32,000 bases of DNA from Halomicrobium mukohataei DSM 12286 (GCF_000023965.1 NC_013201.1:150001-182000); one strand, 5' to 3'; counted from the stretch's first letter, positions 1 through 18,749 are shown. The notes: generated from the letters alone by a model not told the origin. Translations and numbers: made by a program.

Positions 1-154
1 GAACAGGAGGATGCTCTCACGGAACTGCCGATGGTAGTTCTAATTCCCACGGGAAAGTAACGCCGGCGGTCTGGGCTTTGACAAGAATCGTTCGAGACGC
101 TTTAGCAACCGCCTCTCGAAATTCACACTACTGGAAAAGTCACCAGAGTAGCTG

Positions 155-2633: not shown

Positions 2634-2636
2634 GCG

Positions 2637-2966
2637 TTAGGCCTCCTGGGTCGGAGTGGCTGTTTCGAGTGCTGCCGCGAGTTCGTCGTACGAGAGGTAC
2701 TCGGACTTGCCGACAATTTCGTCGTCAACGACAGTGATCGGCAAAATCGATGGACCGTGTTCCTCGACGAGGTCGGAGATAGACTCGGTCTCGAGGAACT
2801 GATCGATATTGTGCTGCATGTTCGCCCGAGAGATATCGACATCTTCGAATTCCGCTTCGAGCTGATCGAGTGCGGCGCTGACCTCGACGAGTTCGTCGTC
2901 GGGGTCAGGTCCACAAACGCCGGTGGAACAACACATCGCTTCTTCGTACAGGGAAAGTTCAGTCAT
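2637..2966 (-). CDS. arsD: Arsenic metallochaperone / weak repressor ArsD
   Basis: 109 aa. The N-terminal MCCSTGVCGP carries the Cys12-Cys13-Cys18 As(III)-binding triad typical of ArsD. The stop is 3 nt upstream of the arsA start. Confidence 0.9.
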   Translation of the reverse strand: MTELSLYEEAMCCSTGVCGPDPDDELVEVSAALDQLEAEFEDVDISRANMQHNIDQFLETESISDLVEEHGPSILPITVVDDEIVGKSEYLSYDELAAALETATPTQEA

Positions 2967-3285
2967 TGAGCTGAAAGGTGTGTTTTCTCAATTGTCTGGC
3001 CATCAGTCCGGCGGTCACCGATCATATCGCAGCTGTTGTTCCATCGCATTCAATTGAGTACTTGTTCAATCATGCTCATAAGATCTTCGGCTCGCACAGA
3101 CGTAGTCAATACTCTAATCGTGCTAAAGGCACTGAACAGATGGTTCTTCTCGTCGAGTCGTTTGCCTCTGTCGGTAGATCTCCAGTATATCTCACGGAGT
3201 GCTAAAGCAACAAGACTGGAATCGAGTGTCCCAGTGCATAAGCCACTCCAGAATACTTAATTCGTTATCTGCTTAATCGATTTGT

Positions 3286-3678
3286 ATGTCATCAACCGAG
3301 CGGCTACAACGGTACCTTGCCGACGAGCGAGGTGGGTGTGGCGACGAAGAGGTATGCCAGCGTCTATCGGAACTCGAAGAGATAGACGCGGCCGCAGGTG
3401 GGCCTGCACTGGACGAAGACGTTGAATTGCTATCCGCGCTTGCGAACGAGACTCGGTACAAGATTGTTCGTATCCTCCATATCGCTGGCGAAGAGCTCTG
3501 CGTCTGTGAATTTGCGCCGCTGCTCGACGTCAGTGACAGCGCAATTAGCCATGCACTGTCCCAACTCACCGACGCTGGACTCATCACTCGCCGAAAAGAG
3601 GGGAAGTGGCGGAAATATCGAGCGACAGCACGAGCCAACGCCGTTCTCATCGCTCTGGATGGATCGCGGGAGCTATGA
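3286..3678 (+). CDS. arsR: ArsR/SmtB-family metalloregulator
   Basis: 130 aa. It has the ELCVCEF metal-binding motif followed by a winged HTH (SDSAISHALSQLTDAGLITRRKEGKWRKY). Divergent from arsDA across a lower-GC, roughly 320-nt intergenic region. Confidence 0.85.
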   Translation: MSSTERLQRYLADERGGCGDEEVCQRLSELEEIDAAAGGPALDEDVELLSALANETRYKIVRILHIAGEELCVCEFAPLLDVSDSAISHALSQLTDAGLITRRKEGKWRKYRATARANAVLIALDGSREL

Positions 3679-3865
3679 TTGTACACAGGAGCGATCAATA
3701 CGGCCCGTTGATGAACTAACACCCCATTGCTTGGTCGGACGATATTTTCGAGTGAGCCGTCAGCAATGGGTAATAGCCATCGTTCGCTATGATAGATGAT
3801 GGGTGATATATCCAAGAACAATCCACAGAGGAGTGCTTGACACGGTATAATAAAGGAGACAATCT

Positions 3866-4150
3866 ATGGTACAGCATTATTGGCGAAGTTTGGATTTGTG
3901 TGTACAGAATGTGGGGCGAAGCCAGATGTCAGCTGCGTTCGCAGAGCGGGAACGTGATCTACGAAAATCGGGGGATGAGTTCGAGATTCTCTCCGGCGGT
4001 ACACACCCCGCTGAACGCGTCCACGAGGAAGTAATCACAGTCATGCAAGAACGTGGTATCGACCTCTCTGACCGAACGCCTTGAGAGGTCTCGAATAACG
4101 AACTCGAATCGTGCGACGTCGTCGGCCTCGCCAAGTGCCCAGTAGTTGCT
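3866..4150 (+). pseudogene. arsC: LMW-PTP-type arsenate reductase ArsC, disrupted (in-frame TGA at 4082-4084, C-terminal half missing)
   Basis: CVQNVGRSQMSAAFAE is the CX5R(S/T) phosphatase loop. Reading through the TGA gives EVSNNELESCDVVGLAKCP, which still aligns with ArsC (..ADLVVTLCGDA..CP). No frame afterwards resembles the ArsC C terminus. Confidence 0.6.
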
Positions 4151-4362
4151 TCGTGGCGAACGAGCCCGCGATCTTCGAGTCGCGAGAGGACAGCACTGAT
4201 GCTCCCGGCGTTCACGTCTGTCGTGATCGCCCTTACACCTTCGCGGCAGACCACATCGACCGTTCGGCCCCGTTCTCGGGCGACAGCCGCGACGCAATCG
4301 ACCGGTTCCTCAACGAGCACGAACGGGAACTGCGCGAGCGGTACGAGACCTGATTGAGTCAT
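4135..4362 (-). other. Possible 5' fragment of a winged-helix regulator gene, abutting the arsC stub (coding strand ambiguous)
   Basis: The minus frame reads ...ITTDVNAGSISAVLSRLEDRGLVRHE, which is HTH-like. It then degenerates where it overlaps the arsC stub. The opposite frame 4111-4353 (+) also has GC3-rich codons, so the coding strand cannot be settled by eye. Confidence 0.25.
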
Positions 4363-4447
4363 GAAGCTTGTTCAGGGGGTTTAGCTTCAGTATCGAATGC
4401 ACTCCAGCACTCTTGACTGACTCACGCTGCCGGAATCCAACAGTAGC

Positions 4448-4792
4448 TCACAAATCGATCGTACTGAGACTTGCTTCGACGAGATTCTCGGGTATGAACG
4501 GTGACGTGAGTGTTGGTGAGTAGCCCAGTGCCCGTGCCAGGATGACGTGTGCAGTTGCCTGGACGGACATGATCTGGTCGACGACGTTGTCTTCGTGCAT
4601 GTCCTGTTCGTGGAACGAGAGCATCGACTCGATACCCGATTGGACAACGTCCGATTCGTCATCGCGGACGCCACGTGCAACTGATAGTATCGCTTGACCG
4701 TAGTCCGCGTGCTTCCCCAACGCTTGTTTAGCCAGGTGACGACACTGCTCAATGAAGTCGAGGATATCGATTTCCATGCCAGGTTCGATCAC
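4448..4792 (-). CDS. Hypothetical acidic protein
   Basis: 114-aa ORF with an ATG start and haloarchaeal-like codon usage. I recognised no family. Confidence 0.45.
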   Translation of the reverse strand: MIEPGMEIDILDFIEQCRHLAKQALGKHADYGQAILSVARGVRDDESDVVQSGIESMLSFHEQDMHEDNVVDQIMSVQATAHVILARALGYSPTLTSPFIPENLVEASLSTIDL

Positions 4793-4941
4793 CTCGGCTT
4801 CAGCCTTCTAAACCGGTGATACCAGTTGATAAGATCGCTCTTCAACAGAGCAGTTGTAAGGTCTCTTCAGTCAGGAGAGACAGCTATGCTTCGAAGGCAG
4901 CTAGGGGACCATATTGCTATGTGGAACGCGGTCGGATGCTA

Positions 4942-5303
4942 CTAGTCGAGGCCACCCCCGCTCTGGTATTCGGTCACCTGCGTCTCGAAATTCTCTTCCG
5001 CGTTCAGGTTGACTTGCTCGGACATCCACGGGAACGGATTGTCAGTCCCGTACTGCTCCGGTAAGTCGAGTTGTCCAAGGCGCCGGTCGGCGATGTGTTC
5101 GACGTACTCGGCGAACTGCTCGGCACTCATGCCAAGTATTTCGTCAGGATACGCCTCATAGGTGTAATTTTCTCTATCTCGACCGCTTCAGTAATCTGGT
5201 CGGCTACCTCGTCGCCGAACTCGTCGGTCCACACGCCGGGATTCTCCGACCAAATCTGTCTGATGAGATCCACTCCGAAGCCGTCAACGACCGAGGTACG
5301 CAT
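4942..5303 (-). pseudogene. Remnant (C-terminal third) of a second class I RNR beta subunit, frameshifted
   Basis: My minus-strand translation gives ..VDGFGVDLIRQIWSENPGVWTDEFGDEVADQITEAVEIEKI. After a 1-nt frame change near 5165-5175 it continues YTYEAYPDEILGMSAEQFAEYVEHIADRRLGQLDLPEQYGTDNPFPWMSEQVNLNAEENFETQVTEYQ. This is collinear with residues about 205-330 of the intact nrdB at 7063-8079. All iron-ligand regions upstream are missing. Confidence 0.7.
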
Positions 5304-5365
5304 ACGCCGAGGGGTAGGGTGGCGTAGTTTACATGGACCACTCTATCATACCGGCCGATGGGATA

Positions 5366-7060
5366 TCAGCTCTCACAGGCCTTGCATTCGAGGATGTCTC
5401 GGCTGAACTTCTGTGCGGCGTTCACGCTATGTTGGTAGTAGAGACTCTTCACCCCTTTCTTCCAGGCCTCGATGTAGAGCTGGTTGATCTCCTTGACGCT
5501 CACTTCGCTCGGATCGATCGAGACGTTCAGGCTCTGTGCCTGATCGATGTGTTTCTGCCGCTGCGCCGCCTGGTTGATGATCGCCATCTGTGGGATCTCG
5601 GCGAAGGTCTTGAACACCTCCTTCTCCTCGTCGGTCAGGCAGTCGAGGTGTTGCACGCTCCCGTCGTTCTGTGCGATGCTGTCCCAGACCTCGCGCTCGT
5701 CTCTGCCTCGCTCTTTCAGTATCGCCTCAAGGAACCGGTTCTTCTGCGTCGACTTCAGCTTCGCACCGTCGCGGACGAAGTAGTTCGATTTCAGCGGTTC
5801 GATGCTCGGACTGACCTGCCCCAGGATGACACTGCTGGATTTCGTCGGGGCCACGCTCATCGTCGTCGCGTTCCGGCGACCGTAGCCCTCGAGTACCTCC
5901 GGCTCGCCGAACTCGTCGGCGAGCCGACGACTCTCCTCGTAACTTCGCTCCTTGATCGTGCGGAAGATTGCCTCGTTTTTCTCCATCGCCTCCATGCTGT
6001 CGAACGGAATCATCTCGCTCTGGAGGTAGCTGTGCCAGCCGAGGACGCCGATGCCGACCGCCCTGTGCCGTTTCGCAAACCGTACTGGGCGTTCCATGAA
6101 CTGCGTCCCCTCCGCCTCTTGGATGAACTCCTCTATGACGGCGTCGAGGAACCGCGTCAGCGTCTCTACTGCGTCGGTGTCCTTCCACTCGTCGTAGTGG
6201 AGCGCGTTCATCGACGAGAGACAACAGACGAAACTCTCGTCTGGCGTGGCCGGCAGCGCGATCTCGGTACACAGGTTAGAGCCGTTGATCTCGTAGCCCC
6301 TGTCCTTGTAGACCTGTGGCTTCCCGTCGTTCATGTTGTCCCGGAAGATAATATACGGGACACCGATGTTGATCCGCGTCTCTATGATCTCTGCCCACGT
6401 CTCTCGCTTCTCTTCGTCGCCGTCGACCATCGCCCGGAACCAATCGTCACCGATGATGACGCCGTAGTAGATGTCCTGTACGGGGTCGCCCTCGGTCTTG
6501 ATGTTGAGCCACTCGTCCAGGTCGTCGTGTTCGACGTCGATGTACCCCGCGAACTGGCCGCGCCGCGTCTCGCCCTGGCTGACGACGTTGATGATCGTGT
6601 CGAACAGTTCGGTGAAGCTGTAGCTCCCATTGCTCTTGCCGTTGTTCGTGATCGGGCTACCTCGGGGCCGGATCTCGCCGAAGTACCCGCTGGTCCCGCC
6701 GCCCAGCTTGGTCATCTCGCCCACTTCGGCCTGCGTGTAGAGGATGCTCTCCATGTTGTCCTCCATGTAGCTACCGAAGCAGCTGATGGGCAGGCCCCGG
6801 TCCAGACCGAAGTTCGACCACACCGGACTCGCGAGGCTGTAGAAGCCCCGACTCATGTAGTCGTAGAACTTGTCCGCGAAGCCGTCGTCGTCCAGGATCT
6901 CCTCGGCTCGCTCCGCGATCTCCCTGACCCGCTCCTCGGCCGTGACGCCCTCGATCAGGTACCCCTCGTCGAGGAACGCCCGGCTGTCCTCGTTCAGCCA
7001 GTAGAACGGTTCCTCGTGCTGCTGGTTGACCTCGTCGAGTGCTGGTTCTGTTTGTACCAT
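5366..7060 (-). CDS. nrdA: Ribonucleoside-diphosphate reductase alpha subunit, short form without an N-terminal ATP-cone
   Basis: Motifs found: SNLCTEI active-site loop, PISCFGSY, VAPTKSSS, and a C-terminal CKAC redox pair. I place the start at MVQTEPALDE (ATG 7058-7060), 2 nt after the nrdB stop. The track's 7171 start would overlap nrdB. Confidence 0.9.
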   Translation of the reverse strand: MVQTEPALDEVNQQHEEPFYWLNEDSRAFLDEGYLIEGVTAEERVREIAERAEEILDDDGFADKFYDYMSRGFYSLASPVWSNFGLDRGLPISCFGSYMEDNMESILYTQAEVGEMTKLGGGTSGYFGEIRPRGSPITNNGKSNGSYSFTELFDTIINVVSQGETRRGQFAGYIDVEHDDLDEWLNIKTEGDPVQDIYYGVIIGDDWFRAMVDGDEEKRETWAEIIETRINIGVPYIIFRDNMNDGKPQVYKDRGYEINGSNLCTEIALPATPDESFVCCLSSMNALHYDEWKDTDAVETLTRFLDAVIEEFIQEAEGTQFMERPVRFAKRHRAVGIGVLGWHSYLQSEMIPFDSMEAMEKNEAIFRTIKERSYEESRRLADEFGEPEVLEGYGRRNATTMSVAPTKSSSVILGQVSPSIEPLKSNYFVRDGAKLKSTQKNRFLEAILKERGRDEREVWDSIAQNDGSVQHLDCLTDEEKEVFKTFAEIPQMAIINQAAQRQKHIDQAQSLNVSIDPSEVSVKEINQLYIEAWKKGVKSLYYQHSVNAAQKFSRDILECKACES

Positions 7061-7062
7061 CG

Positions 7063-8079
7063 TTAGAACATGTCCTCCGCGGTGACGCTCTGTGCGTGTT
7101 TGTTGTACGTGGTCGACCGCTTGCTGAAGAAGTCGTTGTCCTTCGTCATCATGATGTCCTCGTCGAACCACCGCGTCTCCTCGAGCAGGTCCTCGTCCGG
7201 CTCGAAGATCGGCTCGACACCGACGTTCTCGAGGCTCTGGTTGAAACGGTCCCGCAGGAACGCGTCGACGTGCGCCCGGGGAAGGAACTCCAGTTCGCCC
7301 TCACCGAAGATCCAGTCCAGTATCTTCATCTCTGCCTCGAACGCCTGCTGACAGGCCGCTTGGACCTCTTCTTCGAAGTCCTCGTCGAAGAGGTCCGGAT
7401 TCTCCTCGCGAATCGTCTCCACGAGTTCGACACCGAACAGTCCGTGAATCTGCTCCTCCTTGCTGGTCGCTTCGACGGCGTTCGCGATCCCCTTGAACTT
7501 CTTCTCGTGTTTGTCGAAGCTCGTCATGATGAGGAACTGCGAGAACAGCGAGACGTGCTCGACGAACGTGGAGAACAGCAGGAGACTCATCACGTACTCC
7601 TGTGTGTCGTCGCTCTCGCTCTTCTCGAGGTACTCGTCGAGGTAGTCGATCCGCTCCTCGATTGCGGGGACATCGGTCACCTCCTCGAAGTCCTCCGTGA
7701 TCCCCAAGATGTCGAGGAGATGGCTGTACGCGTCCATGTGTCTGACCTCGCTCTCGGCGAAGGTCATGCCGACGTTCCCGACCTCCGCTTTGGGCATCTC
7801 GTCGTAGATGTCTGCCCAAAAGGTCTTGACCTGGACCTCAATCTGCGCGATGGCCAGCATCGTCCGCTTGATGACGGCCTTTTCTGCCGGAGTCGTGTTG
7901 ACCTTGAAGTCCTGCACGTCTCCCGAGAAGTTGAACTCCGTGTGAACCCAGTAGCTGTTCCGTATCGCGTCTTTGTACTCGAGGACGTCAGGGTACTCGT
8001 ACGGTTTGAGCTGTGTCCGTTCGGAGAAGATGTCGGTCTCCGTATCTCCGCCTGTGGTTTTGTTTTCAGTCATTGGCAC
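7063..8079 (-). CDS. nrdB: Ribonucleoside-diphosphate reductase beta subunit (di-iron/tyrosyl radical type)
   Basis: 338 aa. ESEVRHMDAY supplies E-x2-H-x3-Y (the radical Tyr). FVEHVSLFSQF and EEQIHGLF (E-x2-H) supply the remaining metal ligands. Confidence 0.9.
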   Translation of the reverse strand: MPMTENKTTGGDTETDIFSERTQLKPYEYPDVLEYKDAIRNSYWVHTEFNFSGDVQDFKVNTTPAEKAVIKRTMLAIAQIEVQVKTFWADIYDEMPKAEVGNVGMTFAESEVRHMDAYSHLLDILGITEDFEEVTDVPAIEERIDYLDEYLEKSESDDTQEYVMSLLLFSTFVEHVSLFSQFLIMTSFDKHEKKFKGIANAVEATSKEEQIHGLFGVELVETIREENPDLFDEDFEEEVQAACQQAFEAEMKILDWIFGEGELEFLPRAHVDAFLRDRFNQSLENVGVEPIFEPDEDLLEETRWFDEDIMMTKDNDFFSKRSTTYNKHAQSVTAEDMF

Positions 8080-8242
8080 GTACTCCGGAGGAGTCGCCCT
8101 CTGTTGGTTGGCTTCTGTTGCCGTCGTTCATTCGTTCGGTGCGTTCGAAGGCACCCGTGTCGCTTTCTGTACGCCTGGACGTGGGCCATGCTCGCCCGGT
8201 CAGGAATTGACCGAACATTCGTTTGATCTGCGTATATTTGTG

Positions 8243-8731
8243 TCATTGTGAACTGTTCGAGGCTTCGAAGTCATCGAGTTCCGCATCCAAGACTGCATCA
8301 AGTTCTCTCAGGAATTCCTGCGGCTCAGAGAATGCTTTGTAAACGGAGACAAATCGAATGTAGGCTACCTTATCGAGCGTGCGGAGGCTTTCAGAGACGA
8401 GTTCGCCGATGAGACTCGAAGAGACGATACGTGCCTCTCGACCTTGCAGTTCGCTCTCGACATCGTCGACGAGAGCAGTCACTGTTGTCTCGGTCACATC
8501 TCGCTTCTCAACGGCTCGCTCGATCCCTGCGCGGAGTTTCTGTCGGTCGAACGATTCGATGGTTCCGTCGCGTTTTTTCACTTGGAGGGACTCCCACTCC
8601 GGACGTTCGTAGGTGGTAAAGCGGAACGAACAGCGTTGACACTCGCGACGCCGTCGGACGGAGGTTCCGTCGGCACTGGTTTCTGTATCGATGACGCGTG
8701 TTCGCTCGTTCCCGCAGTCCGGGCAGTTCAT
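8243..8731 (-). CDS. nrdR: NrdR transcriptional repressor (zinc ribbon plus ATP-cone)
   Basis: MNCPDCGNERTRVIDT...CQRCSFRFTTYE is the CxxC...CxxC ribbon. VKKRDGTIESFDRQKLRAGIERA is the ATP-cone. ATG at 8729-8731 is preferred over the track's GTG at 8740 because NrdR proteins start M-x-CP-x-C. Confidence 0.9.
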   Translation of the reverse strand: MNCPDCGNERTRVIDTETSADGTSVRRRRECQRCSFRFTTYERPEWESLQVKKRDGTIESFDRQKLRAGIERAVEKRDVTETTVTALVDDVESELQGREARIVSSSLIGELVSESLRTLDKVAYIRFVSVYKAFSEPQEFLRELDAVLDAELDDFEASNSSQ

Positions 8732-8762
8732 AGTTGTCACTACTTAATCCTCTATGGTCTTA

Positions 8763-8807
8763 ACCCTATATGTGGTACTTCTCGATTTTAACCGCAATAT
8801 ATGGTGG
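8763..8807. promoter_or_regulatory. Two NrdR-box-like palindromes upstream of nrdR
   Basis: ACCCTATATGTGGTAC (8763-8778) and CCGCAATATATGGTGG (8792-8807) both fit the bacterial NrdR-box pattern acaCwAtATaTwGtgt at most core positions. By my count the centres are 29 bp apart. They sit 32-76 nt upstream of the nrdR ATG. Confidence 0.5.
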
Positions 8808-9571
8808 TAAAGGCTGTCAGATAAAACTTCCCCAATAGGATTGATGTAGTACAATTAGACTTGATTAGTGGGCGCGGATGATTGGGACCATATGCATTGA
8901 GAACACCAGTCTCAACTACTGTCACCAGTTGGAAGTTGAGACTACACCGGCTTTATCGGGGCTGTGATGCGCTTTTTCGGACGAATTTGTGAGTGGAAGC
9001 TGCTTCGGATTCCTCTCGATAGCCTACTCATGTTGCACTACCAACTGAATCGGTGGACTTCCGAGATCTCGGACAGTGTTGCCACTCAGGAATCCACCCT
9101 GACCCCGTACAGAGTACCTCCTTATCTGATTCCGGTTTCCATCTTCAGCAGCGTGAGCGTATTGTCAGCTGCACAATCGGTGCGTATTCGTACTCGCCCG
9201 TCAACTCAACTTGGACGTGCAAATCGACCGCTCGCCAAATTGAGTACAAAGTTCTTTCAGCACGAACACGCGAAAGAGGGTTCCATCTCGTAGCGTGTCG
9301 ACCACCAAAAACATGGAAATCGGAATAGCGTTGGACGTGTCCTTCGAGAGGTAAAGCGACAAACCCCTTCGTTTTCAAACTGTTTCAGACACGTCGATAC
9401 AGACACAGCTGACGACTGGGTCAGATCCTTCAGCTTCGCATGAATCAGCTAATCTGAACACTACCCACTACACTAGCTTGTAGGTATGGGTAATTCCGAC
9501 GAAGGTACGCCAGTGATAGTATTACGCAGCTTATTCGGGAACGTCCCAGTGATCCGGCGTGGACTGCGATG

Positions 9572-9883
9572 CTACACTAGTGGTCGGAGCACCAGAACGG
9601 TGGCAATACCAGCGAGTAACGAAATGAGGACGTTCTCCGTCCGCCACATAATGAGTAAGACGACACCGCCCGCGATCCACTCGACTGGGCCACCGGTCGC
9701 GAGTTCAGGACCAACAATCGCGACGACGATAGCACCGGGAAGCACTTCTAAGACAGACTGGAGCCGGGGTGAGACGTCGACGTGGCCCAGCACCCAGAGC
9801 CCGCCCGCTTTGGTGGCGTAGGTCACGAGACTCATGGCGAGGACGACGGCGACGACGGCCGGATCCAAGGCGAGATCAACCAT
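9572..9883 (-). CDS. azlD: Branched-chain amino acid transport protein AzlD
   Basis: 103 aa and very hydrophobic (about 3-4 TM). The start overlaps the stop of the upstream AzlC-like frame, as is usual for azlCD pairs. Confidence 0.75.
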   Translation of the reverse strand: MVDLALDPAVVAVVLAMSLVTYATKAGGLWVLGHVDVSPRLQSVLEVLPGAIVVAIVGPELATGGPVEWIAGGVVLLIMWRTENVLISLLAGIATVLVLRPLV

Positions 9884-10037
9884 CGAAGCGGAACACCTCG
9901 GTTAGGCCGCCGCCGATGGCACCCAGCAGGACGTACCAGCGTCCCGGAAGAGCCGCTGCGGCCACCAGTGCGATCACGAGCGTGGTCGCCCACGGAGTGA
10001 GACTAGACCGGCCATACCAGTTGTGGTAATATGATTT
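9876..10037 (-). pseudogene. azlC: 3' remnant of azlC (only about 45 C-terminal codons, no start)
   Basis: My minus-strand translation gives WYGRSSLTPWATTLVIALVAAAALPGRWYVLLGAIGGGLTEVFRFDG, with a stop overlapping the azlD ATG. The frame is closed upstream by TAA at 10038-10040. Sequence beyond that is AT-rich and non-coding. Confidence 0.55.
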
Positions 10038-11283: not shown

Positions 11284-11433
11284 CTACGGCACGAATTCCT
11301 GGTCTTCTCCCCAGAACTGAATTCCGATGTGATCTGTGATTTCCTCAATGAGATCGTCGGAAAGCGGATGGTTCGAGACGATCAGAGAACACCCGTTGTC
11401 GAGCACGAGATCGATCAACCACGACATTGCCAT
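11284..11433 (-). pseudogene. 3' fragment of a fourth immunity-like paralog
   Basis: ..LDNGCSLIVSNHPLSDDLIEEITDHIGIQFWGEDQEFVP aligns with L.DGSILLISKNPVDN.PPE.VSEHVGIQTMTDYS of the full-length paralogs. The N-terminal three quarters are missing. Confidence 0.6.
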
Positions 11434-11452
11434 CAACCGCCGGTTTCGGCAC

Positions 11453-12103
11453 TTAGCGTTCGAAATTCGTCTCAGAGACGCGTTCTTCCGGGTAGTCTTG
11501 CCAGGAACGGATCCCGACGTGGTCTGCGATGTCGTCGAGTGGCTCTGGGTGGTCTGGCATGTGCTTCGAGACGAGGATAATACTCCCGTCTGGGAGTTGC
11601 TCACTGATGTCGGCCGGCGCGGTCAACAGACGCTGTTCACCGATGGTCTCGACCTCCGCTGGCGGGAAGATATCCAGCCACGTCAGGAACTGTCGATCCG
11701 ACGGCGGCAGGTCGTCCGCCGACACCGGGTGATGCATCGGCTGGTGTTCCTCGATACCGTACGACGCCTTTGCGGCGGTCTCGATTTCTGCGTACGTTTC
11801 CTTTGCCGTCTTGATGAGTGCATCGTAGGCCTTCGTTGCGTCTACTACAGTTTCAGGCTCAAAGGTATCGTACGGCGCAAATATCCGGACGATTGTTCCT
11901 TCCGGGTATTCATGCCCTGTCCCCTCTGAGATGACGATTTTAAACCTGAGAGCATCTTTCTTAACATTTATACGCTTTTCTCCGAACGCATTTTCGCCAT
12001 TATTTCGGAGCGTGTACTGATCGCTACTATCGGTGTCTGATAGCAGTCTCTGGTAGGTCTCCTCTACTGGTAGACTTTTGGCGACGTGAACTATTCTTGC
12101 CAT
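11453..12103 (-). CDS. Immunity-like acidic protein, paralog C (divergent)
   Basis: It shares the C-terminal block FLTWLDIFPPAEVETIGEQRLLTAPA...LPDGSIILVSKHMPD..DHVGI with paralogs A and B. ATG (MARIVHV..) at 12101-12103 is preferred over the track's TTG at 12118. Confidence 0.75.
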   Translation of the reverse strand: MARIVHVAKSLPVEETYQRLLSDTDSSDQYTLRNNGENAFGEKRINVKKDALRFKIVISEGTGHEYPEGTIVRIFAPYDTFEPETVVDATKAYDALIKTAKETYAEIETAAKASYGIEEHQPMHHPVSADDLPPSDRQFLTWLDIFPPAEVETIGEQRLLTAPADISEQLPDGSIILVSKHMPDHPEPLDDIADHVGIRSWQDYPEERVSETNFER

Positions 12104-12120
12104 CGTTCTGTTAAACAAAT

Positions 12121-12530
12121 ACTCCCCGATTAGGTCTATTGTCTAGTTTTCTCGTCTCTATGAAGCAGGAATCCGGCAGCTATCGGAATGTAGAGATAGC
12201 CAAGACGGAGCTATTCGTCGTAGAATTCGCTTCGGGAGACGTGATCGGAGTAGTCCGTCATCGTCTGGATCCCGACGTGTTCTGACACCGCTTCAGGCGG
12301 TGTATTGTCTACGGGATTCTTTGAGATAAGCAGAATGCTCCCGTCTGCGAGTGTCTCAGCGCGTGGCGCCGGCGCAGATAGGAGTGTTTCACGGCCGATT
12401 GCATCAACTTCTGCCGGCGAAAATATATCGCACCAGGTCAGGAACCGTCGCTCTTCCGGCGGGAACGACTCGCCACTGATAGGTGAGACCTCGCTTTGAT
12501 ACGTTTCTTCGCCGAATCCAACCTTTGGCG
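12121..12530. repeat. Duplicated cassette segment (3' half of the immunity-like gene plus about 90 nt of 3' flank), copy 2
   Basis: It aligns with 13136-13545 (offset 1015 nt) at high identity by eye. The match includes the non-coding flank ..tgaagcagga..agatagcca.gacgg.g.tattcgtcgtagaattc. Confidence 0.7.
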
Positions 12531-12885
12531 ACGTACTGAGCCCAGTGTATAAATCGACCGTCGTCTCAATCAACGCCTGAATTTCGTCTGTAGCAAGGAA
12601 GTCCGATTCCGAAGATTCGTCTATCTCTTGGCCAATGTTGAGATCCACTTCTATTAGCGTACAATCCGGATAATCCTGCAGTCGGAATCCATCAGTAATG
12701 TAGACACTCAAGATGAAGTCTCCACGAAAGAAGATTATTTCAGTCATATATTCGTATGCTTCTGGTAGTATATCCGCAACTTCATAGGCCTCATTCTGTT
12801 TCAGGTGTTCAGTAACCTGCTCGGACATATGGTCTCTCTCTTTTTTTGGAACCGCGACAATCACTCTGATCGCGTCTTCTAGCAT
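12211..12885 (-). CDS. Immunity-like acidic protein, paralog B
   Basis: 224 aa, starting MLED.. like paralog A. By hand alignment, 86 of the last 98 residues are identical to paralog A. Confidence 0.8.
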   Translation of the reverse strand: MLEDAIRVIVAVPKKERDHMSEQVTEHLKQNEAYEVADILPEAYEYMTEIIFFRGDFILSVYITDGFRLQDYPDCTLIEVDLNIGQEIDESSESDFLATDEIQALIETTVDLYTGLSTSPKVGFGEETYQSEVSPISGESFPPEERRFLTWCDIFSPAEVDAIGRETLLSAPAPRAETLADGSILLISKNPVDNTPPEAVSEHVGIQTMTDYSDHVSRSEFYDE

Positions 12886-12886
12886 G

Positions 12887-13072
12887 TTATCCTTGAGCAG
12901 CGGCTCGTACTGATGGTCGAGTGCCTACTGCAAAGCCTCTTTGATTGGGAGGATGTAGATCTGGTTGAGCGATATTTCTATCAGCTTCGACCTGTAGCCT
13001 TTCTTCATCAGTGACTGGTCCGATACGGATGTTAGATGACGAATCTTCTTTGCATACCAGTTTGTCATCCAC
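12887..13072 (-). pseudogene. Orphan toxin C-terminal tail fragment preceding paralog B
   Basis: This short ORF ends ..PPNQRGFAVGTRPSVRAAAQG. The toxin-tip ORF ends ..VPNSRGKLQSARRSSVEPATGD. Both are joined to the next gene by the identical 16-mer TAACATGCTAGAAGAC (stop, 1 nt, ATG). Confidence 0.4.
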
Positions 13073-13135
13073 TCTATCTCTGACGTAAAACTAATTTATA
13101 GCCCTGTTAGGCCGATTTTATATCATCCAAACCAC

Positions 13136-13545
13136 CTACGTTCTGTCAGGTCTAATATATTTCTTTCGCATCTGTGAAGCAGGAGAACGGCTGACTACCG
13201 GAATTCCAAGATAGCCAGGACGGCGTTATTCGTCGTAGAATTCACTTCGAGAGACGTGATCGGAGTAGTCCGTCATCGTCTGGATACCGACATGTTCGGA
13301 GACCTCTTCAGGCGGTGCATTGTCTACGGGATTCTTTGAGATAAGCAAAATGCTCCCATCTTCAAGCGCTTCGACGCGTGGTGCCGGCGCAGACAGGAGC
13401 GTTTCACGGCCGATTGCCTCGACTTCCGCCGGCGAAAAGATGTCGAACCACGTCAAGAAATCTCGATCCGCTGGTGGGAACGACTCGCCACTGATTGGGA
13501 TTCCCTCGCTCTGGTACGTCTCAATCCCAAATCCTACCTTCGGGA
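13136..13545. repeat. Duplicated cassette segment, copy 1
   Basis: Partner of 12121-12530; see that entry. Confidence 0.7.
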
Positions 13546-13894
13546 GTTCAGTTAGACGGTCGTACAGATCGGTCGCAGTCGCTACCATTATGTCCATGTG
13601 ATCTGTATTAAGGAAATCGCTCGTATTTTCAAGATCCCGGACGTTATTGTTTGTGAACTCTATAAGACAGTACCCTGGATAATGCTCGATCTTGTGGCCA
13701 TCGATGACTAAGATGCTCATTATTACGTCGCCAACGGAGAAAAAAACCTCGTGCTTGCCGTGAAAAGCGTCTCTCTGGACCTCTATAACCTTATTTTCAG
13801 TACTCTCTTTTAGTAGCTCAGTCACCTGACTGAGACCATACTCTGTCTGTTCTTGCGGTATCGCGATAACTGACCGAGCTTCGTCTTCTAGCAT
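13226..13894 (-). CDS. Immunity-like acidic protein, paralog A (immediately downstream of the toxin tip)
   Basis: ATG at 13892-13894 (MLEDEARSV..) lies 1 nt after the TAA of ORF 13896-14558. The protein is acidic, about 222 aa, with the conserved block FLTWFDIFSPAEVEAIGRETLLSAPAPRVEALEDGSILLISKNPVD. Confidence 0.8.
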   Translation of the reverse strand: MLEDEARSVIAIPQEQTEYGLSQVTELLKESTENKVIEVQRDAFHGKHEVFFSVGDVIMSILVIDGHKIEHYPGYCLIEFTNNNVRDLENTSDFLNTDHMDIMVATATDLYDRLTELPKVGFGIETYQSEGIPISGESFPPADRDFLTWFDIFSPAEVEAIGRETLLSAPAPRVEALEDGSILLISKNPVDNAPPEEVSEHVGIQTMTDYSDHVSRSEFYDE

Positions 13895-13895: not shown

Positions 13896-14558
13896 TTAGT
13901 CACCAGTGGCGGGTTCTACCGAAGATCGACGTGCCGATTGAAGCTTCCCTCTACTGTTAGGTACTTCGTCGGTGTGGGTCACAGAGTTATCATTCTCAAT
14001 GTTGTCTAAACCCGCATTATTAATTTGTTTACTAGAGGGTGAGTCAAGGTATTTAGCGTCTGATTTTTGGCTTGTCAGACTATTTTTTACGTCGTCATTG
14101 AGATAGAACTCGTTAGCTTTTTCACCACTTTTTATTTTTATATCATTTATTCCATTAATTTTCTTGCTGTTTCGAACTTCTGAGAGAGCGTTATTCTTAT
14201 CGGCGATATTACTTGGGCGTATAATCATCTGACCATCTGGGGCTTTTCCGAGTGCTTGAAGAGCCTTGAATCTGATATATTTGTCGAGTATTTTCTCTGG
14301 TTTCACTCTACTATTAGTTGAGGGTGTATTTTTCGCCTCAACGTAATTCCCATTTGCTATCACGTCGAGGTCCATACTTTTTCCATTTAATGCCTGCGCA
14401 ACTCGACCTTTGGAAACCTCATCCGGCATATTATTTAGTATCTTCTGCTTTTCGCTATCCGTTAATTTAGTCCATGATGGATACTCGACATTTTTTCCTA
14501 TCGCTGTCACGTCTTCTCCCCGTTTCGATAGCGCTACACCCAGACGGGTCTCAAACAT
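13896..14558 (-). CDS. AT-rich Lys/Asn-rich module with a PD-(D/E)xK (restriction-endonuclease-fold)-like motif; putative toxin tip
   Basis: MFETRLGVALSKRGEDV...SMDLDVIANGNYVEAKN has the pattern E..., D-x12-E-A-K. One 60-nt line (14101-14160) has only 14 G+C by my count. A -1 shift in the A6 run at 14585-14590 would fuse this frame to the upstream ORF. Confidence 0.55.
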   Translation of the reverse strand: MFETRLGVALSKRGEDVTAIGKNVEYPSWTKLTDSEKQKILNNMPDEVSKGRVAQALNGKSMDLDVIANGNYVEAKNTPSTNSRVKPEKILDKYIRFKALQALGKAPDGQMIIRPSNIADKNNALSEVRNSKKINGINDIKIKSGEKANEFYLNDDVKNSLTSQKSDAKYLDSPSSKQINNAGLDNIENDNSVTHTDEVPNSRGKLQSARRSSVEPATGD

Positions 14559-14566
14559 ATATCCTT

Positions 14567-16084
14567 TTATAGGATCCCAATTCCTTTTTTAAATCCGTCT
14601 TGTGACGCAATATCTGCTATACTTTCTCTATATTCGATATCACTGCGTTGGAGATATCGCAGTTCGTCAGCAAAGCGGTCAATCTGGCCTCGATTCATAT
14701 ATGGTATGAATTTGCCGTTGATTGTCCGCCCTTCTCCATAGAATCCCACGACTGACCGTTTGATACTTAGGGCATACGGACCGTCGTAGGTGACCAAATA
14801 CTTTGCATTCTTTTTTCCAAGATTACTTGCCAGTGCTTTTGCTGTATTTAATGATACTTTGTCCGATTCTTCACCAATGCGGATGATCGCTGCGTCATAT
14901 TGCTTGAAGGCCGATGCGATTTTGACCCGATCATCCAATTTGAGATTCTTGGTCAGTCCCGACTTCCGGAGTGCTGCATAGGCCTCGTCGGACTTCCCTG
15001 GGTTGACTTTGGCCCACTTGCTACTGATTTTGATAGCCTTCGGTGCGTCAGATGCCAAGAAGGGAGCGAGACTGACAGCGTCGAGAGCTGCGTCCCCGTA
15101 ATCACCTTGTCCGGTATTCTGTGCGGCGTCACGGAGGTCCGCCGGAATGTCGATCACGGGGACTACTGATAGGCCAATCCAGCCGATCAGGTAGCCAGGG
15201 TTGTCGTTGTAACCGCTGGTGACCACACCGTCAGGCATTCCAGTTTCACCCAGCGCGGCCCCTTCGATCATCGCGCGGCCGTTCTCGTTCAGTGCTGCGC
15301 CGATATTCTCGGAGTCACAAGGATTCGGATCACGTTTGTCGGTGAGCCCGTCGGAGTCACTGTCGACGACCACCGCGCTCGGACAGAGAGGTCCGACTTC
15401 TTCAGCATCTCCGAGCCCATCTTTGTCAGAGTCGGTCAGGCTCGGGTTCGAAAACGACTGGGGGCCGTAGACCGCCCACTGTCCGTCAACACGGTAGAAC
15501 GTCACCTCACGACCGTCAATCAGCCCGTCCCCGTCGGTATCCGCCCTCGAACTGTCGAGTTCGAACTCGCTCGTCAGTGACCCGTCTTCCTTGAGCGTGG
15601 GGAGGACCCACTGCCGGTCCTCGACGGCGTCGATGACTCCATCGCGGTCGGTGTCCGTTCCCACTTCGAAGTGCGTGAATTGTGCTCTCCCCGGTGGCTC
15701 AAGTTCGATCGTAACGCGCTCCCCAGCAAACTCTCCGAGGTCAGCGCGGTGAGTGATGACAGGGGCGGTCAGACCACTTCCGGGATCGTTGTTGGCTGGT
15801 GTTGAGGCCGCTACACGCTTGCTGGTTCCAGACGAGTCACTGACAGTGAAAATGTACTGGCCACCATGATTCGTTCGCTCTTCACGTGGCCGCGCTCTAA
15901 AGTGCAGGAGCGTGTCCTCGGCGTCTGTGGAGAGCGTCGTCGTCGTTTTGAAACCGGGTTTACAACCAGTCTGGCCCTGTACTGCCGCCTCTGTGGGACA
16001 TCTATCTTCACCATCGATCAGTCCATCACCGTCGGTATCTGGCGCAGTTGGATCCGTGTCAGGCCGCCAGCCTTGTCTGAGAAT
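14567..16084 (-). CDS. Polymorphic-toxin-like protein, central part (TSP3 repeats, PT-TG-like segment, AT-rich C-terminal domain)
   Basis: The track ORF starts at 15664 (GTG). I translated 16084-15665 codon by codon and the frame stays open and contiguous with the upstream ORF. Repeats present: DTDGDGLIDGED, DTDRDGVIDAVE, DTDGDGLIDGRE, DSDKDGLGDAEE, DSDSDGLTDKRD. The PT-TG-like stretch is VVPVIDIPADLRDAAQNTGQGDYGDAALDAVSLAPF. Confidence 0.65.
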   Translation of the reverse strand: MLRQGWRPDTDPTAPDTDGDGLIDGEDRCPTEAAVQGQTGCKPGFKTTTTLSTDAEDTLLHFRARPREERTNHGGQYIFTVSDSSGTSKRVAASTPANNDPGSGLTAPVITHRADLGEFAGERVTIELEPPGRAQFTHFEVGTDTDRDGVIDAVEDRQWVLPTLKEDGSLTSEFELDSSRADTDGDGLIDGREVTFYRVDGQWAVYGPQSFSNPSLTDSDKDGLGDAEEVGPLCPSAVVVDSDSDGLTDKRDPNPCDSENIGAALNENGRAMIEGAALGETGMPDGVVTSGYNDNPGYLIGWIGLSVVPVIDIPADLRDAAQNTGQGDYGDAALDAVSLAPFLASDAPKAIKISSKWAKVNPGKSDEAYAALRKSGLTKNLKLDDRVKIASAFKQYDAAIIRIGEESDKVSLNTAKALASNLGKKNAKYLVTYDGPYALSIKRSVVGFYGEGRTINGKFIPYMNRGQIDRFADELRYLQRSDIEYRESIADIASQDGFKKGIGIL

Positions 16085-17065
16085 TCATTCAACTCTTGTC
16101 AGGTACCGAGCTTCTTGTCCATCAGTAAGTCCGTCGTCGTCAGTATCTGAAACCCAAGGGTCTGTGCGGATTTCTTGCTTGTTCGCGTACCAGGTGTCAG
16201 TTGGAGCCCCGCTCAGGTCTGTCTCTTCGAGCGTCAGACGATCGATCCGGCCTGGTGCATCGAAGTCTTCGTCGGGGCCTTCGACGCGGTCGAACTGGAA
16301 GTCGAAGTCGTCGGTTGCGTCCGTCAGCTCGATATCACCGTCGCCACTGCGGACTCGTGAAACCGGCACGCCGATCCCTTCGAGCTTCGCTTCCAGCACG
16401 GGCTTGAGATACTGCTCGTGACGATCGGTAATCGCGTACGTCTGCTCTGCGGTCGGATCGGTGTAGGTTCGGTTACGCTCGACATCGTCCGTGAGACCGT
16501 CTCCATCGGTATCTGCGGTAAGCGGGCTAGACGAGACTTGAAGGACATCGTCATTTGGCGTACAGTCTTCTCCCTTCCATTCGATGGTCCCGCTGTCCGT
16601 TTCTCGCTGCTGGCACGCTGAGTCGAAGCGGAGCGGTCTGTCAGCGCCGTCAGCTGAGACGACCGGAATATCCCAGCCCTCCCGTTCGATGTCGTCGTTC
16701 AGACCGTCACCGTCAGTGTCCCGCTTGTTCGGATCGCTGACAGTGTCATAGAATTCCCGATCTGTCGTCGGATGGGTCTCGGGATCGTCGAAGTCGAACT
16801 CCTGACTGTCAGTGAGGGTGTCTCCGTCGGTGTCGGCCGCAGTCGGGTCTGTCTCGATTCTCGTTCCGTTACCTACTAGCAGGCCGGCTTCTTCGCGGTA
16901 ATCCGGAATACCATCACCGTCGCTATCGGTCACCGACGAGGAGGAACTCTTCCACCATCTCCAACAACAGGGCCAGCCGACCGTCCAGTCGCTCTCAGAG
17001 ACACCACTGACTCGCCAGCGCTTCACCCCGATCCCACTCACACAAAGACCACGGATGGGGCCCAT
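16085..17065 (-). CDS. Polymorphic-toxin-like protein, N-terminal part (TSP3-type Ca-binding repeats), ending at an in-frame TGA
   Basis: 326 aa with five D-x-D-x-D-G-x-x-D-x-x-E repeats: DSDGDGIPDYRE, DTDGDTLTDSQE, DTDGDGLNDDIE, DTDGDGLTDDVE, DTDDDGLTDGQE. The same frame continues beyond the TGA at 16085-16087. I saw no clear signal peptide. Confidence 0.65.
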   Translation of the reverse strand: MGPIRGLCVSGIGVKRWRVSGVSESDWTVGWPCCWRWWKSSSSSVTDSDGDGIPDYREEAGLLVGNGTRIETDPTAADTDGDTLTDSQEFDFDDPETHPTTDREFYDTVSDPNKRDTDGDGLNDDIEREGWDIPVVSADGADRPLRFDSACQQRETDSGTIEWKGEDCTPNDDVLQVSSSPLTADTDGDGLTDDVERNRTYTDPTAEQTYAITDRHEQYLKPVLEAKLEGIGVPVSRVRSGDGDIELTDATDDFDFQFDRVEGPDEDFDAPGRIDRLTLEETDLSGAPTDTWYANKQEIRTDPWVSDTDDDGLTDGQEARYLTRVE

Positions 17066-17153
17066 CCAGATGGGTACGACGACCGCCTGCGCCTACTCTC
17101 GGAAACGATCGAATCACAGACAGTGTCGATACCGTCGAGAACGGAGCGGGCGT

Positions 17154-18101
17154 TCACTCGACCGCGTCCGTCGCGGCACCGTCTGGAGCGGGACTCGATC
17201 CCGTGTCGCTCGCGTTCCAGTACGCTTCGAGCGGGCCGTCGACACCGGTCAGCTGGACCCACGCCTGAGCGGTGATACCGAGAACGACGATCGAGACCAC
17301 CGCAGACTCCAGCGAGAGTATCGCCTGGCTGGCCAGGAACGTCGGCGACTGGAACGTCGCGTCCGGCGTGAGCTGTCCGAAAAGCAGGCTAAAGGCCATG
17401 TTCACCCCGTAGGGGACGACGAGTGCGAGTCCCAGTCGCAGTCGGTTGCCGGCGACGACGCGCCAGCTCCGAACGAACGCCGACGGGACCGACGCGTCCC
17501 GGACGACGATCTCGTGATCGACGAAGGCGAACACCACGACGACGACACCGATCGGAAGGGTCGCCAGCAAGAACACCGGGACCAGGAGCAGCGACGCGTA
17601 CCACGAGCCGACGAGTGTCGTCTGCAGTGATTCCGGGAGCACCAGGAAAACCCCGATCGCCGCCAGAAAGACGGCGATCATACTGAGCATCGTCAGAACA
17701 AATATGACAGCTATCTTCAACAGGGAGGCGACGAACAGCCGCAGCGTCGCCCAGCCGAGCGATCGAAAGACCAACTGTTCGGGGATGTGATCGCGCCCGT
17801 CGTCGACGAGCGCACGAACGGCGACCACCTGGATGGGAAGCGTGAGTATCCCGCCGGTGAGTCCACCCAGCAGCGCAGCGCCCGCCGACGCCAACGCCGG
17901 GAGCGCCGTCCCGGGTGCCGGCGTGTTGGCCGGTGTCATCGCCCCGCTCGTGCCGAGGGGAATGTACGTCGTCGCCAGCACCCACACGAACGCGCCCTGG
18001 AGGACGCTCGCAACGAAGAACGTCGCCACGAGGAGAGCGCCGTTTCGCGAGAGCGCGCGTGCGAGACCGCCGGTGATCGTCTGTCGAACGTGGAGGGCCA
18101 T
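17154..18101 (-). CDS. Polytopic membrane protein, paralog of 20200-20964
   Basis: It has about 6-7 hydrophobic segments. It shares FVDHEIVVRDASVPSAFVRSWRVVAGNRL with FYGQAIVVDGESAIAAFARSYRVVRANLL of the other gene. I prefer ATG at 18099-18101 (MALHVRQTI..), by analogy with MGVLQALQRT.. in the paralog. Confidence 0.7.
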   Translation of the reverse strand: MALHVRQTITGGLARALSRNGALLVATFFVASVLQGAFVWVLATTYIPLGTSGAMTPANTPAPGTALPALASAGAALLGGLTGGILTLPIQVVAVRALVDDGRDHIPEQLVFRSLGWATLRLFVASLLKIAVIFVLTMLSMIAVFLAAIGVFLVLPESLQTTLVGSWYASLLLVPVFLLATLPIGVVVVVFAFVDHEIVVRDASVPSAFVRSWRVVAGNRLRLGLALVVPYGVNMAFSLLFGQLTPDATFQSPTFLASQAILSLESAVVSIVVLGITAQAWVQLTGVDGPLEAYWNASDTGSSPAPDGAATDAVE

Positions 18102-18377
18102 GCCGCGGGATTTGTCACCCGCTGAGTTCAATTCTACGGACTGTCTCCGTGTCGGAACAGTCGACCGGCAGGAGCGTCTCCGACACAGATCCGTCCAGCG
18201 TGGCGAGGGCGGTCGGTGTCTGTAGGCCAGAAAGGGACCGCGGCGATCTGAGACTGCTGGCTGTCACTGTTTCAAAATATTCGCGACCACGGGGTCGCAA
18301 CAGTCTGTACAGACGTACAGCCGGCAGTATGAGCACCACCCGATTTTCCGAGCTGGAAAAGAAGTGGTAGCTATTAC

Positions 18378-18749
18378 TTGGTCCGTCCAGAAGGGCCGAC
18401 CGTGAGTGAGGATCCCGCCGACGAGGATATCTTCGCACTCCTCGACGACGAGTACGCACGGGAGATCCTTACTCAGACGAGTGTCGAACCGATGTCAGCC
18501 AAAACGTTGAGCGACCGATGTGACGCGTCCTTGCCGACGATCTACCGGCGGACGGAACGGCTCGTCGAGTGTGACCTGCTCGTAGAACAGACGAAAGTGC
18601 GACAGAACGGCCACCACTACACTGTCTTCGAGGCGTGTCTCGATCGACTCACCGTCGAACTCGACGAGGGAGAGCTCTCGGTGACGATCGACGCGGGCGA
18701 ACCCGAGGACCCCGCCGACCGCTTTACCAACCTCTGGGAGGGGATCTAA
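18378..18749 (+). CDS. Winged-helix (ArsR-like) transcriptional regulator, haloarchaeal type
   Basis: IFALLDDEYAREILTQTSVEPMSAKTLSDRCDASLPTIYRRTERLVECDLLVE is a wHTH. The start is uncertain: TTG at 18378 or GTG at 18402. Confidence 0.75.
   Translation: MVRPEGPTVSEDPADEDIFALLDDEYAREILTQTSVEPMSAKTLSDRCDASLPTIYRRTERLVECDLLVEQTKVRQNGHHYTVFEACLDRLTVELDEGELSVTIDAGEPEDPADRFTNLWEGI

Follow-up and report, generated by a model that had tools for sequence, protein, structure and literature searches.

A probable inactivated polymorphic toxin gene of a haloarchaeon and the putative immunity genes behind it

Are three adjacent open reading frames (ORFs) on a plasmid of Halomicrobium mukohataei the pieces of a polymorphic toxin gene, and if so, what can such a locus still do for its host? 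The ORFs lie at positions 13896-17065 of the stretch examined here, 32,000 nucleotides of H. mukohataei DSM 12286 DNA (GCF_000023965.1, NC_013201.1:150001-182000), which we call the window. In the RefSeq annotation of plasmid NZ_CP039376.1 from H. mukohataei JP60, where window position 11000 corresponds to record position 186419, the region is a run of hypothetical proteins. We put at roughly 0.8 the probability that 13896-16928, on the minus strand, holds the C-terminal third of a polymorphic toxin gene from a haloarchaeon, now inactivated, with an intact array of immunity genes behind it. Of the features by which such toxins are recognised (Zhang/Aravind 2012), this locus shows a central repeat stalk, a variable C-terminal domain and a putative immunity gene downstream.

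When the polymorphic toxin class was defined, archaeal cases were predicted among the RHS toxins of Methanosarcina and among haloarchaeal toxins delivered by contractile injection systems (CIS) of the Photorhabdus virulence cassette (PVC) type (PMC3482391). Archaeal polymorphic toxins were also predicted by Makarova et al. 2019, in the account that PMC8416519 gives of that work, and none had been experimentally characterised as of 2021 (PMC8416519). A CIS resembling a type VI secretion system (T6SS) is described from Halogeometricum (PMC11566945). The archaeal class itself is therefore already predicted; what is new to Pfam are the C-terminal tip and immunity families described below.

Gene continuity and truncation

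A preliminary description of this DNA, prepared from the nucleotide sequence, proposed that the three minus-strand ORFs are parted by nothing more than one TGA and one -1 frame change. Both the coordinates and the two lesions are confirmed.

17065-16085, minus strand: ORF1, upstream piece of the broken gene
16081-14567, minus strand: ORF2, middle piece, given here as its open frame (annotated as 15664-14567)
14558-13896, minus strand, -1 frame: ORF3, the piece that bears the tip
16082..16084, minus strand: nonsense codon, an in-frame TGA read in the sequence and also present in independent read assemblies
14581..14582, minus strand: frameshift site, one A missing (GGAAAT to GGAAT) in a three-way DNA alignment with loci L005 and L002

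Three-frame translation reveals that ORF1 and ORF2 are split by the single in-frame TGA at 16084-16082, after which the same frame runs free of stop codons to 14567. The unannotated segment 16081-15665 belongs to this open frame and carries its own thrombospondin type-3 (TSP3) motifs, for example DTDGDGLIDGED. In a protein alignment with P0127, a metagenomic relative of 2705 amino acids (aa), the TGA stands opposite a Gly (RVE*ILRQGW versus RGYGVLERGW). The second lesion is a deletion of one nucleotide at 14581-14582, where the window reads GGAAT and the intact relative L005 reads GGAAAT. This metagenomic contig carries a closer relative of the gene, whose reading is uninterrupted across the site (...DGFKKGNWDAIKGYMFETRLG...). 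In Halomicrobium katesii (locus L002) a single frame encodes a 371-aa protein, P0002, that takes in the last part of ORF2 together with a domain like that of ORF3, and homology with the intact relatives extends 5′ of the ORF3 ATG (NWDPIKGY versus AWNPAKGA and NWDAIKGY). Finally, residues 40-961 of the conceptually repaired protein align with residues 1777-2681 of P0127 in a single alignment of 928 columns at 50% identity that spans both lesions. ORF1, ORF2 and ORF3 are one former gene. Intact orthologues, to which the preliminary description had looked as a check, do exist in relatives, the ORFs being fused in P0002 and L005 and collinear in P0127. Intact orthologues derive from the samples JGI 3300026991, ENA ERZ508514 and SRR27869037.

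Over 16478-13256, a range that takes in both lesions, the assemblies of the read sets SRR017869 and SRR017872 match the window at 100% identity. Because the lesions recur in two independent read-set assemblies, they are true mutations rather than the errors of one assembly. Neither a search of 5.8 billion clusters nor a genome scan turned up a further close paralogue in H. mukohataei.

How much of the gene is left? The preliminary description reconstructed a gene of about 1060 codons. It is indeed one gene, but by comparison with P0127 the window holds only the C-terminal 39% of a gene of about 2700 codons. The first codons of ORF1 are not part of it.

16929..17065, minus strand: false N terminus, ORF1 codons 1-46; not toxin, with 70-96% protein identity to loci in H. 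katesii, Salinibaculum and Halobacterium
16929..17157, plus strand: 3′-end remnant of an unrelated conserved haloarchaeal gene, from DNA alignment; right-hand breakpoint of the toxin island

When reference genomes were scanned with ORF1, only its first 46 residues matched, in H. katesii, Salinibaculum litoreum and Halobacterium sp. KA-4. At the DNA level, conservation with three other genomes over about 17157-16929 ends abruptly at the first TSP3 repeat, and the alignment with P0127 begins only at residue 40 of the repaired protein. In Halobacterium, a 239-aa protein has its C-terminal end (...HHLQQQGQPTLTSLAETPLTRQHFTPSPLTR) encoded on the strand opposite the 46-codon stretch, and a complete copy of the remnant gene is present in locus L009 (8015-8734). 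Because the opposite strand encodes this conserved protein end, the W/C/R-rich sequence MGPIRGLCVSG...WPCCWRWW at the start of ORF1 is a gene remnant read in antisense. The cut in the toxin gene lies at 16929, and about 1,700 N-terminal codons are absent relative to P0127. Lost with them are a hydrophobic leader that resembles a signal peptide, a propeller region similar to BamB, Ig-like/PKD domains and the greater part of the TSP3 array. Having no genuine N terminus, the window copy carries no secretion or trafficking signal. This accounts for the earlier observation that its N terminus lacks a Sec or Tat signal: the signal is indeed missing from the sequence in question, but that sequence is not the gene's own start, and the intact P0127 does begin with a leader-like segment. 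Since the gene is truncated at its 5′ end and interrupted by a stop codon and a frameshift, it is a pseudogene.

We considered whether a tRNA, another noncoding RNA or an attachment site might underlie the 138-nucleotide conserved stretch, and rejected this idea: ARAGORN and Rfam found nothing in the window, and the stretch is the antisense of the protein-coding remnant. A repeat search revealed no insertion sequence (IS) element or flanking repeats that would account for the breakpoint at 16929. In Halobacterium sp. KA-4 the 239-aa gene is followed by one for a 391-aa protein in which a restriction-endonuclease-like motif (E...VDIVA...QCK) is visible by eye. The remnant gene is likewise truncated in H. 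katesii, where it lies beside an IS-type transposase.

Stalk, cassette junction and predicted nuclease tip

If the three ORFs are one gene, then what did it encode? Downstream of the false N terminus, the repaired frame resolves into a stalk, a conserved module and a variable cassette.

16085..16928, minus strand: stalk segment A, five TSP3-type calcium-binding repeats (Pfam TSP3_bac E=1.9e-9; collinear with P0127 1777-2050)
15341..16081, minus strand: stalk segment B, five TSP3 repeats plus a non-repeat insert (open frame and motifs; 47% identity to P0127)
14879..15340, minus strand: conserved module in pre-toxin position, GW[IL]G..VP..D..AD.RD (67% protein identity to P0127; upstream of the breakpoint)
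14583..14878, minus strand: beginning of the variable part, with a basic linker of about 90 aa ahead of the tip (isoelectric point (pI) 9.4; identity drop; YDGPYA... motif that recurs in the family)
14169..14588, minus strand: putative toxin tip, PD-(D/E)xK-like (pI 9.5; conserved columns and AlphaFold model)
13896..14168, minus strand: low-complexity AT-rich tail and stop codon (from translation; a comparable tail in L005)

The ten calcium-binding motifs counted previously were recovered, nine by the regular expression D-x-[DN]-x-D-[GK]-x-x-[DN] and the tenth as DTDGDTLTD. A profile hidden Markov model (HMM) search also supports them in ORF1, where TSP3_bac (PF18884) reaches 37.6 bits, above the gathering score of 25; for ORF2 by itself the value of 14.9 bits stays under that threshold, yet five copies of the motif are present. 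The same model matches P0127 with E=1.5e-31. That TSP3 is a frequent stalk of bacterial polymorphic toxins, as had been assumed, is not borne out by the repeat table of PMC3482391, from which TSP3 is absent.

P0127 gives the fullest picture of the architecture, with a signal-peptide-like leader, a propeller-like region, Ig/PKD domains, a long TSP3 array, the pre-toxin module and the tip in one polypeptide. P0129 (1519-1523 aa) similarly has a leader, TSP3 repeats and the motif GW[IL]..VP..D..AD.RD ahead of its tip, and the pre-toxin motif is common to the window, P0129, P0131 and locus L014. The assignment of this segment to PT-TG (PF14449) fails, because the segment, ORF2 and P0002 give no Pfam match at E<=10; the likeness seen by eye (VP..D..AD..TGxGD..AAL) is a lead only. 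By its position, conserved in the family and just upstream of the junction, the segment nonetheless appears to act as a pre-toxin module.

This junction is abrupt. When H. mukohataei is compared with H. katesii, 15248-14881 shows a DNA identity of 93-100%, which drops to 42-65% from position 14880 on. G+C content falls from about 0.59 to 0.42 over 15000-13500, coinciding with the identity break, and the AT-rich C-terminal region that was pointed out at the start is thus real (0.42 versus about 0.59 upstream). Such a sudden change from conserved to variable sequence is what one expects where cassettes join. In H. katesii, the copy is in its turn only an N-truncated cassette, adjoining a transposase gene. 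In locus L014 (ENA ORDC01008201, 86-3492), the same pre-toxin motif is followed by an unrelated tip (ETRY...DLDAL...SEIK), and tip-immunity cassettes occur there in tandem; a profile-profile comparison of the L014 tip family with that of the window was not significant. The L014 tip is shorter and without the helical insert described below, and the second toxin ORF of that locus begins inside the TSP3 region, in the manner of an orphan module. The linkers in the window and in P0129-P0136 share the motif L.[TD]YDG..A...R......Y...G......[VI]..F..DL. By analogy, the position of the linker may recall the cytoplasm-entry subdomain of CdiA-CT toxins.

The tip itself was compared with 1.84 billion representative proteins, which yielded 13 matches at E<=1e-3, all in haloarchaeal genomes or metagenome contigs. 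The matching segment runs near the C-terminal end in nine of the 13. These proteins, P0127 among them, are between 220 and 2705 aa long, and one, P0126, is the window's own ORF3. The other four comprise one 95-aa fragment and three weak matches in multiple stretches, which were set aside. Numbered over window positions 14169-14588, the residues of interest are E13, D75, E84, K86, K103 and Q111 (E3, D65, E74, K76, K93 and Q101 in ORF3). Across 11 tip sequences D75, Y82, E84, K86, K103 and Q111 are invariant, as is I105 in a set of ten, whereas G9, E13, R15 and G31 are nearly so.

In a confident AlphaFold model of the tip built with the family alignment (predicted local distance difference test (pLDDT) 89, predicted template modelling score (pTM) 0.83), a helix (E13) and a strand lead to a two-helix insert, after which come a strand bearing D75, a strand bearing E84-x-K86, a helix (K103, Q111) and a last strand. 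Its elements include helices at 6-22 and 97-112 and strands at 71-78, 81-86 and 121-125, and the helical insert between strands 1 and 2 is about 35 aa long. In the model, and by conservation, E, D and ExK are thus placed on an alpha-beta-beta-beta-alpha-beta core as in PD-(D/E)xK enzymes. Those weak fold matches that can be interpreted are mostly to enzymes of this kind, specifically Cas4, RecU, FAN1, Dna2, Exo5 and Holliday junction resolvases, with AF1548 (1y88; probability 0.85, template modelling (TM) score 0.46), a lipothrixvirus nuclease (probability 0.90, TM score 0.46) and phage proteins named 'PD-(D/E)XK nuclease superfamily' also among them. The restriction-endonuclease-like signature in the preliminary description therefore survives in its essentials, through model topology and conserved residues, but the catalytic spacing counted from the invariant Asp is D-x8-E-x-K and not D-x12. 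Tip (pI 9.5) and linker (pI 9.4) are both basic within an otherwise acidic protein. We conclude that the tip probably represents a new sequence family with the restriction-endonuclease fold.

Putative immunity genes downstream

Which genes accompany the tip? The array of small acidic paralogues previously seen directly downstream is present, and consists of three genes (pI 4.1-4.7) and a fragment of a fourth.

13226..13894, minus strand: I1 (ATG one base after the toxin stop; ORF from 13903/13894; no Pfam family)
12211..12885, minus strand: I2 (59% identity to I1; 71% to the gene directly after the L005 tip)
11453..12118, minus strand: I3 (93% identity to the gene directly after an H. katesii-type tip)
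11296..11442, minus strand: C-terminal fragment of a fourth paralogue (found by tblastn; ...LIVSNHPLSDDLIEEITDHIGIQFWGEDQEFVP)
12886..13225, minus strand: I1-I2 spacer, with a junction copy of about 35 nucleotides and a 61-codon ORF (weak, unverified)

Pairwise identities among I1, I2 and I3 are 36-59%, distributed unevenly as 16-36% in the N-terminal halves and 46-87% in the C-terminal halves. For the immunity proteins at large, the corresponding ranges are 16-53% and 46-93%. I1-I3 have no Pfam match, DUF3396 included, and only five close relatives were found in a large protein database. Homologues lie directly after a tip in five other loci, L002 (H. katesii), L005, L010, L014 and L015. Two copies follow the tip in L010, the P0127 locus; in L015 the homologue follows a P0129-type tip that is just 35-40% identical to that of the window; and behind the second tip family of L014 the homologues share the C-terminal half only. 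The L014 tips are each followed by a protein of 227-228 aa for which the resemblance to the window's immunity proteins is confined to that half. A solitary homologue (40% identity to I1) occurs in Halobacteria archaeon HArc-gm2 (L004, 10001-10669) between hisG and housekeeping genes, with no toxin remnant detectable nearby.

Across I2-I3, the window and locus L005 share 77% DNA identity. Since I2-I3 match the arrangements in L005 and H. katesii, a newer cassette comprising the 3′ part of the tip and I1 was apparently inserted ahead of I2. In both H. katesii (L002) and L005, the fragment of the fourth paralogue again comes right behind an I3-type gene, so that I3 and the fragment travel as a unit. 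Within the I1-I2 spacer, a 48-nucleotide stretch is a copy (73% identical) of the junction between the toxin stop and the I1 start, and the 61-codon ORF contains an 'NIRIGPV' motif that resembles the tail NTEGIRIGDPV of H. katesii-type tips. The spacer may preserve a remnant of a tip that was displaced. A tblastn search with three tip alleles found no orphan tips between the immunity genes, and no integrase or mobile element was noticed around the array within the window.

Two genes flank the island on the other side.

17154-18131, minus strand: DUF7847 membrane protein gene, island flank (93% DNA identity in the LC1Hm plasmid)
18378-18749, plus strand: divergent helix-turn-helix (HTH) regulator gene, island flank (93% DNA identity in the LC1Hm plasmid)

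A related plasmid of Halomicrobium sp. LC1Hm keeps the DUF7847 and HTH genes and lacks the toxin/immunity island, which places these two genes outside the system. Farther off, the annotation of about 150-10000 in the window lists the hcsS/hcsL halo-CC-star genes, an arsA/arsD/arsR cluster, and nrdR with a ribonucleotide reductase alpha/beta operon.

What the locus may do, and how it compares with known systems

How would such a system work when intact? The toxin would be secreted, and its PD-(D/E)xK tip would be a metal-dependent nuclease that attacks the DNA, or possibly the tRNA, of neighbouring cells. The gene directly downstream would supply a cytoplasmic acidic immunity protein with a conserved C-terminal half, the variable N-terminal half presumably setting specificity. 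New tip/immunity cassettes would enter by recombination near 14880, at the end of the conserved module, and each arrival would push older immunity genes downstream to give the order I1-I2-I3 plus fragment. In this strain the toxin is dead, with 60% of the gene deleted from its 5′ end, a Gly codon changed to TGA and one nucleotide lost. Because the toxin is dead and I1-I3 are intact, the locus now most likely offers only protection against relatives that are still armed, and present-day selection may act on the immunity genes for this reason.

Several points weigh against this interpretation. No HMM from Pfam, NCBIfam or PDB sequences picks out the tip, and the same holds for the pre-toxin module and for the immunity proteins. 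In particular, no Tox-REase family, nor any other in Pfam, matches any of the 11 tip sequences at E<=10; a profile search of the tip gave no PDB sequence match, and Foldseek gave nothing at E<=1e-3 against PDB or BFVD. The model of I1 is of moderate quality (pLDDT 65.5), and its likeness to its best PDB match, PA0821 (7DRG; E=5e-4, TM scores 0.41/0.30), a DUF3396-family immunity protein against VRR-Nuc (PD-(D/E)xK) effectors of the T6SS, is suggestive only. The hydrophobic N-terminal leaders of P0127 and P0129 were recognised by eye, and a secreted protein would have an archaeal surface layer (S-layer) and membrane to cross. It could also be that I1-I3 are intact simply because the locus decayed recently, in which case selection need play no part. 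Regardless of how these points are balanced, toxicity and immunity are both computational predictions.

A more ambitious version of the preferred reading would make this an undescribed, Sec-exported, TSP3-stalked haloarchaeal nuclease toxin system, contact-dependent or diffusible, with its own variant of the tip fold and a two-part immunity protein. H. mukohataei would then be 'disarmed but immune', with I1, I2 and I3 each neutralising another tip allele (the window, L005 and H. katesii/P0127 types). We regard this version as tentative, and on balance doubtful.

Could the tip still be made, and serve the plasmid instead? ORF3 might yet be translated, for example by re-initiation, and form with I1 an intracellular addiction module that stabilises the plasmid, an explanation compatible with the reading that we prefer. 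ORF3 retains the conserved catalytic residues E3, D65, E74 and K76, its ATG lies 8 nucleotides past the ORF2 stop, I1 in turn starts one base past the ORF3 stop, and the locus is plasmid-borne. ORF3, however, amounts to the tip minus its first 10 residues and is without the conserved W..KG start of helix 1; its expression and the start of ORF2 are both hypothetical. Moreover, the same immunity genes occur elsewhere as solitary orphans, and therefore persist without a resident toxin. We judge the addiction module unlikely as an alternative and, as an addition to the 'disarmed but immune' version, less likely still than that version itself.

An almost equally unlikely view, and a slightly weaker one, is that the gene encoded a calcium-binding adhesin or S-layer-associated protein, that its C-terminal domain is no toxin and that the downstream paralogues are unrelated accessory genes. 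Adhesins typically contain TSP3 repeats, PKD/Ig-like domains and a beta-propeller; the nearest NCBIfam models, far below their cut-offs, are those of the Myxococcus cohesion proteins CglD/MtsC/MtsD; and no toxin HMM matches. Adhesin function does not readily explain why conservation breaks sharply right before the C-terminal cassette, why different tips are carried by the same stalk and pre-toxin module, or why the tip should be of basic character and have an invariant PD-(D/E)xK triad and a fitting topology. Nor does it explain a closely coupled downstream gene, which changes along with the tip in five other loci and of which orphan copies exist.

It is very improbable that the gene is functional as it stands, with readthrough of the TGA and a programmed -1 slip at an A-rich site yielding a protein of about 1060 aa. 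There are just two lesions within 3.1 kb, and the frameshift adjoins a run of six A residues (TTTAAAAAAGGAAT). Programmed -1 frameshifting on A-rich heptamers occurs in archaea, as in Sulfolobus fucA1. Here, however, the intact relatives have one more A and need no slip, and the stop codon stands where the orthologue has a Gly. The gene is also truncated, its present N terminus being the antisense of another gene; with that false start, and about 1,700 codons including the signal peptide gone, a readthrough product would not be exported. We therefore reject programmed frameshifting at the A-run. That the ORFs are separate, unrelated genes, as the three hypothetical proteins in the RefSeq annotation imply, is scarcely conceivable given one 2705-aa protein collinear with all three, fused forms in two relatives and coding-like TSP3 sequence that fills the unannotated gap.

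The locus and its relatives offer a concrete haloarchaeal toxin/immunity family that is open to testing. Because the toxin gene of the window is dead, a direct phenotype must come from repaired or orthologous sequences. The material includes an intact orthologue of 2705 aa, a 140-aa tip with predicted catalytic residues that can be mutated, and, from Halomicrobium species that can be cultivated, three or more tip/immunity allele pairs. If the 'disarmed but immune' version were true, the locus would provide a ready-made matrix of three archaeal toxin/immunity specificities. The likely evolutionary end state seen here, in which the weapon is lost and the shields are kept, bears on the persistence of immunity genes in hypersaline communities.

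Among bacteria, WapA/WapI of Bacillus subtilis exemplifies the Sec-dependent polymorphic toxins that carry their tips on repeat stalks. The haloarchaeal family resembles such systems (PMC3482391) in the succession of apparent signal peptide, repeat stalk, conserved module, variable nuclease cassette and adjacent immunity gene, and in its displaced or orphan immunity genes and cassettes with recombination at the conserved/variable junction. It differs in its haloarchaeal host and in a stalk composed of TSP3, Ig/PKD and propeller elements rather than RHS/YD, ALF or FilH repeats. Of the described pre-toxin and processing domains, PT-VENN, PT-TG and HINT among them, none was detected; the window copy is a truncated pseudogene, and both tip and immunity families are absent from Pfam.

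At the level of the tip, Tox-REase-1 has the signature E, D, ExK, Q, and Tox-REase-6 and -7 have extra elements (GxxxE, IxD, ExK, Q) (PMC3482391). Like Tox-REase-1 to -10, the present domain is a C-terminal tip with E...D...ExK...Q on a predicted alpha-beta-beta-beta-alpha-beta core; unlike them, it matches no Pfam family, contains a helical insert of about 35 aa and is restricted to haloarchaeal and metagenomic sequences. A comparable pairing is found in T6SS effectors of the TseV type, VRR-Nuc nucleases of the PD-(D/E)xK superfamily that are neutralised by TsiV-type DUF3396 immunity proteins (PMC9635880). In both cases a PD-(D/E)xK nuclease is paired with an alpha+beta immunity protein, the two being predictions in the haloarchaeal case, and often more than one immunity paralogue lies downstream. 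The haloarchaeal immunity candidates have no sequence similarity to DUF3396, and delivery would rely on a secreted stalk protein as opposed to T6SS/PAAR.

The predicted archaeal polymorphic toxins share with this locus a variable C-terminal toxin and adjacent immunity genes, known here computationally. Unlike the Methanosarcina RHS and haloarchaeal CIS systems, this one has neither RHS repeats nor contractile-injection genes nearby. Arrays of orphan immunity genes also exist elsewhere, for example as the acquired interbacterial defence clusters of Bacteroides. As in those arrays, several intact paralogues of apparently differing specificity are maintained here without a working toxin, and L004 has a solitary homologue. 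In contrast to them, the array in H. mukohataei sits behind the wreck of its own toxin gene.

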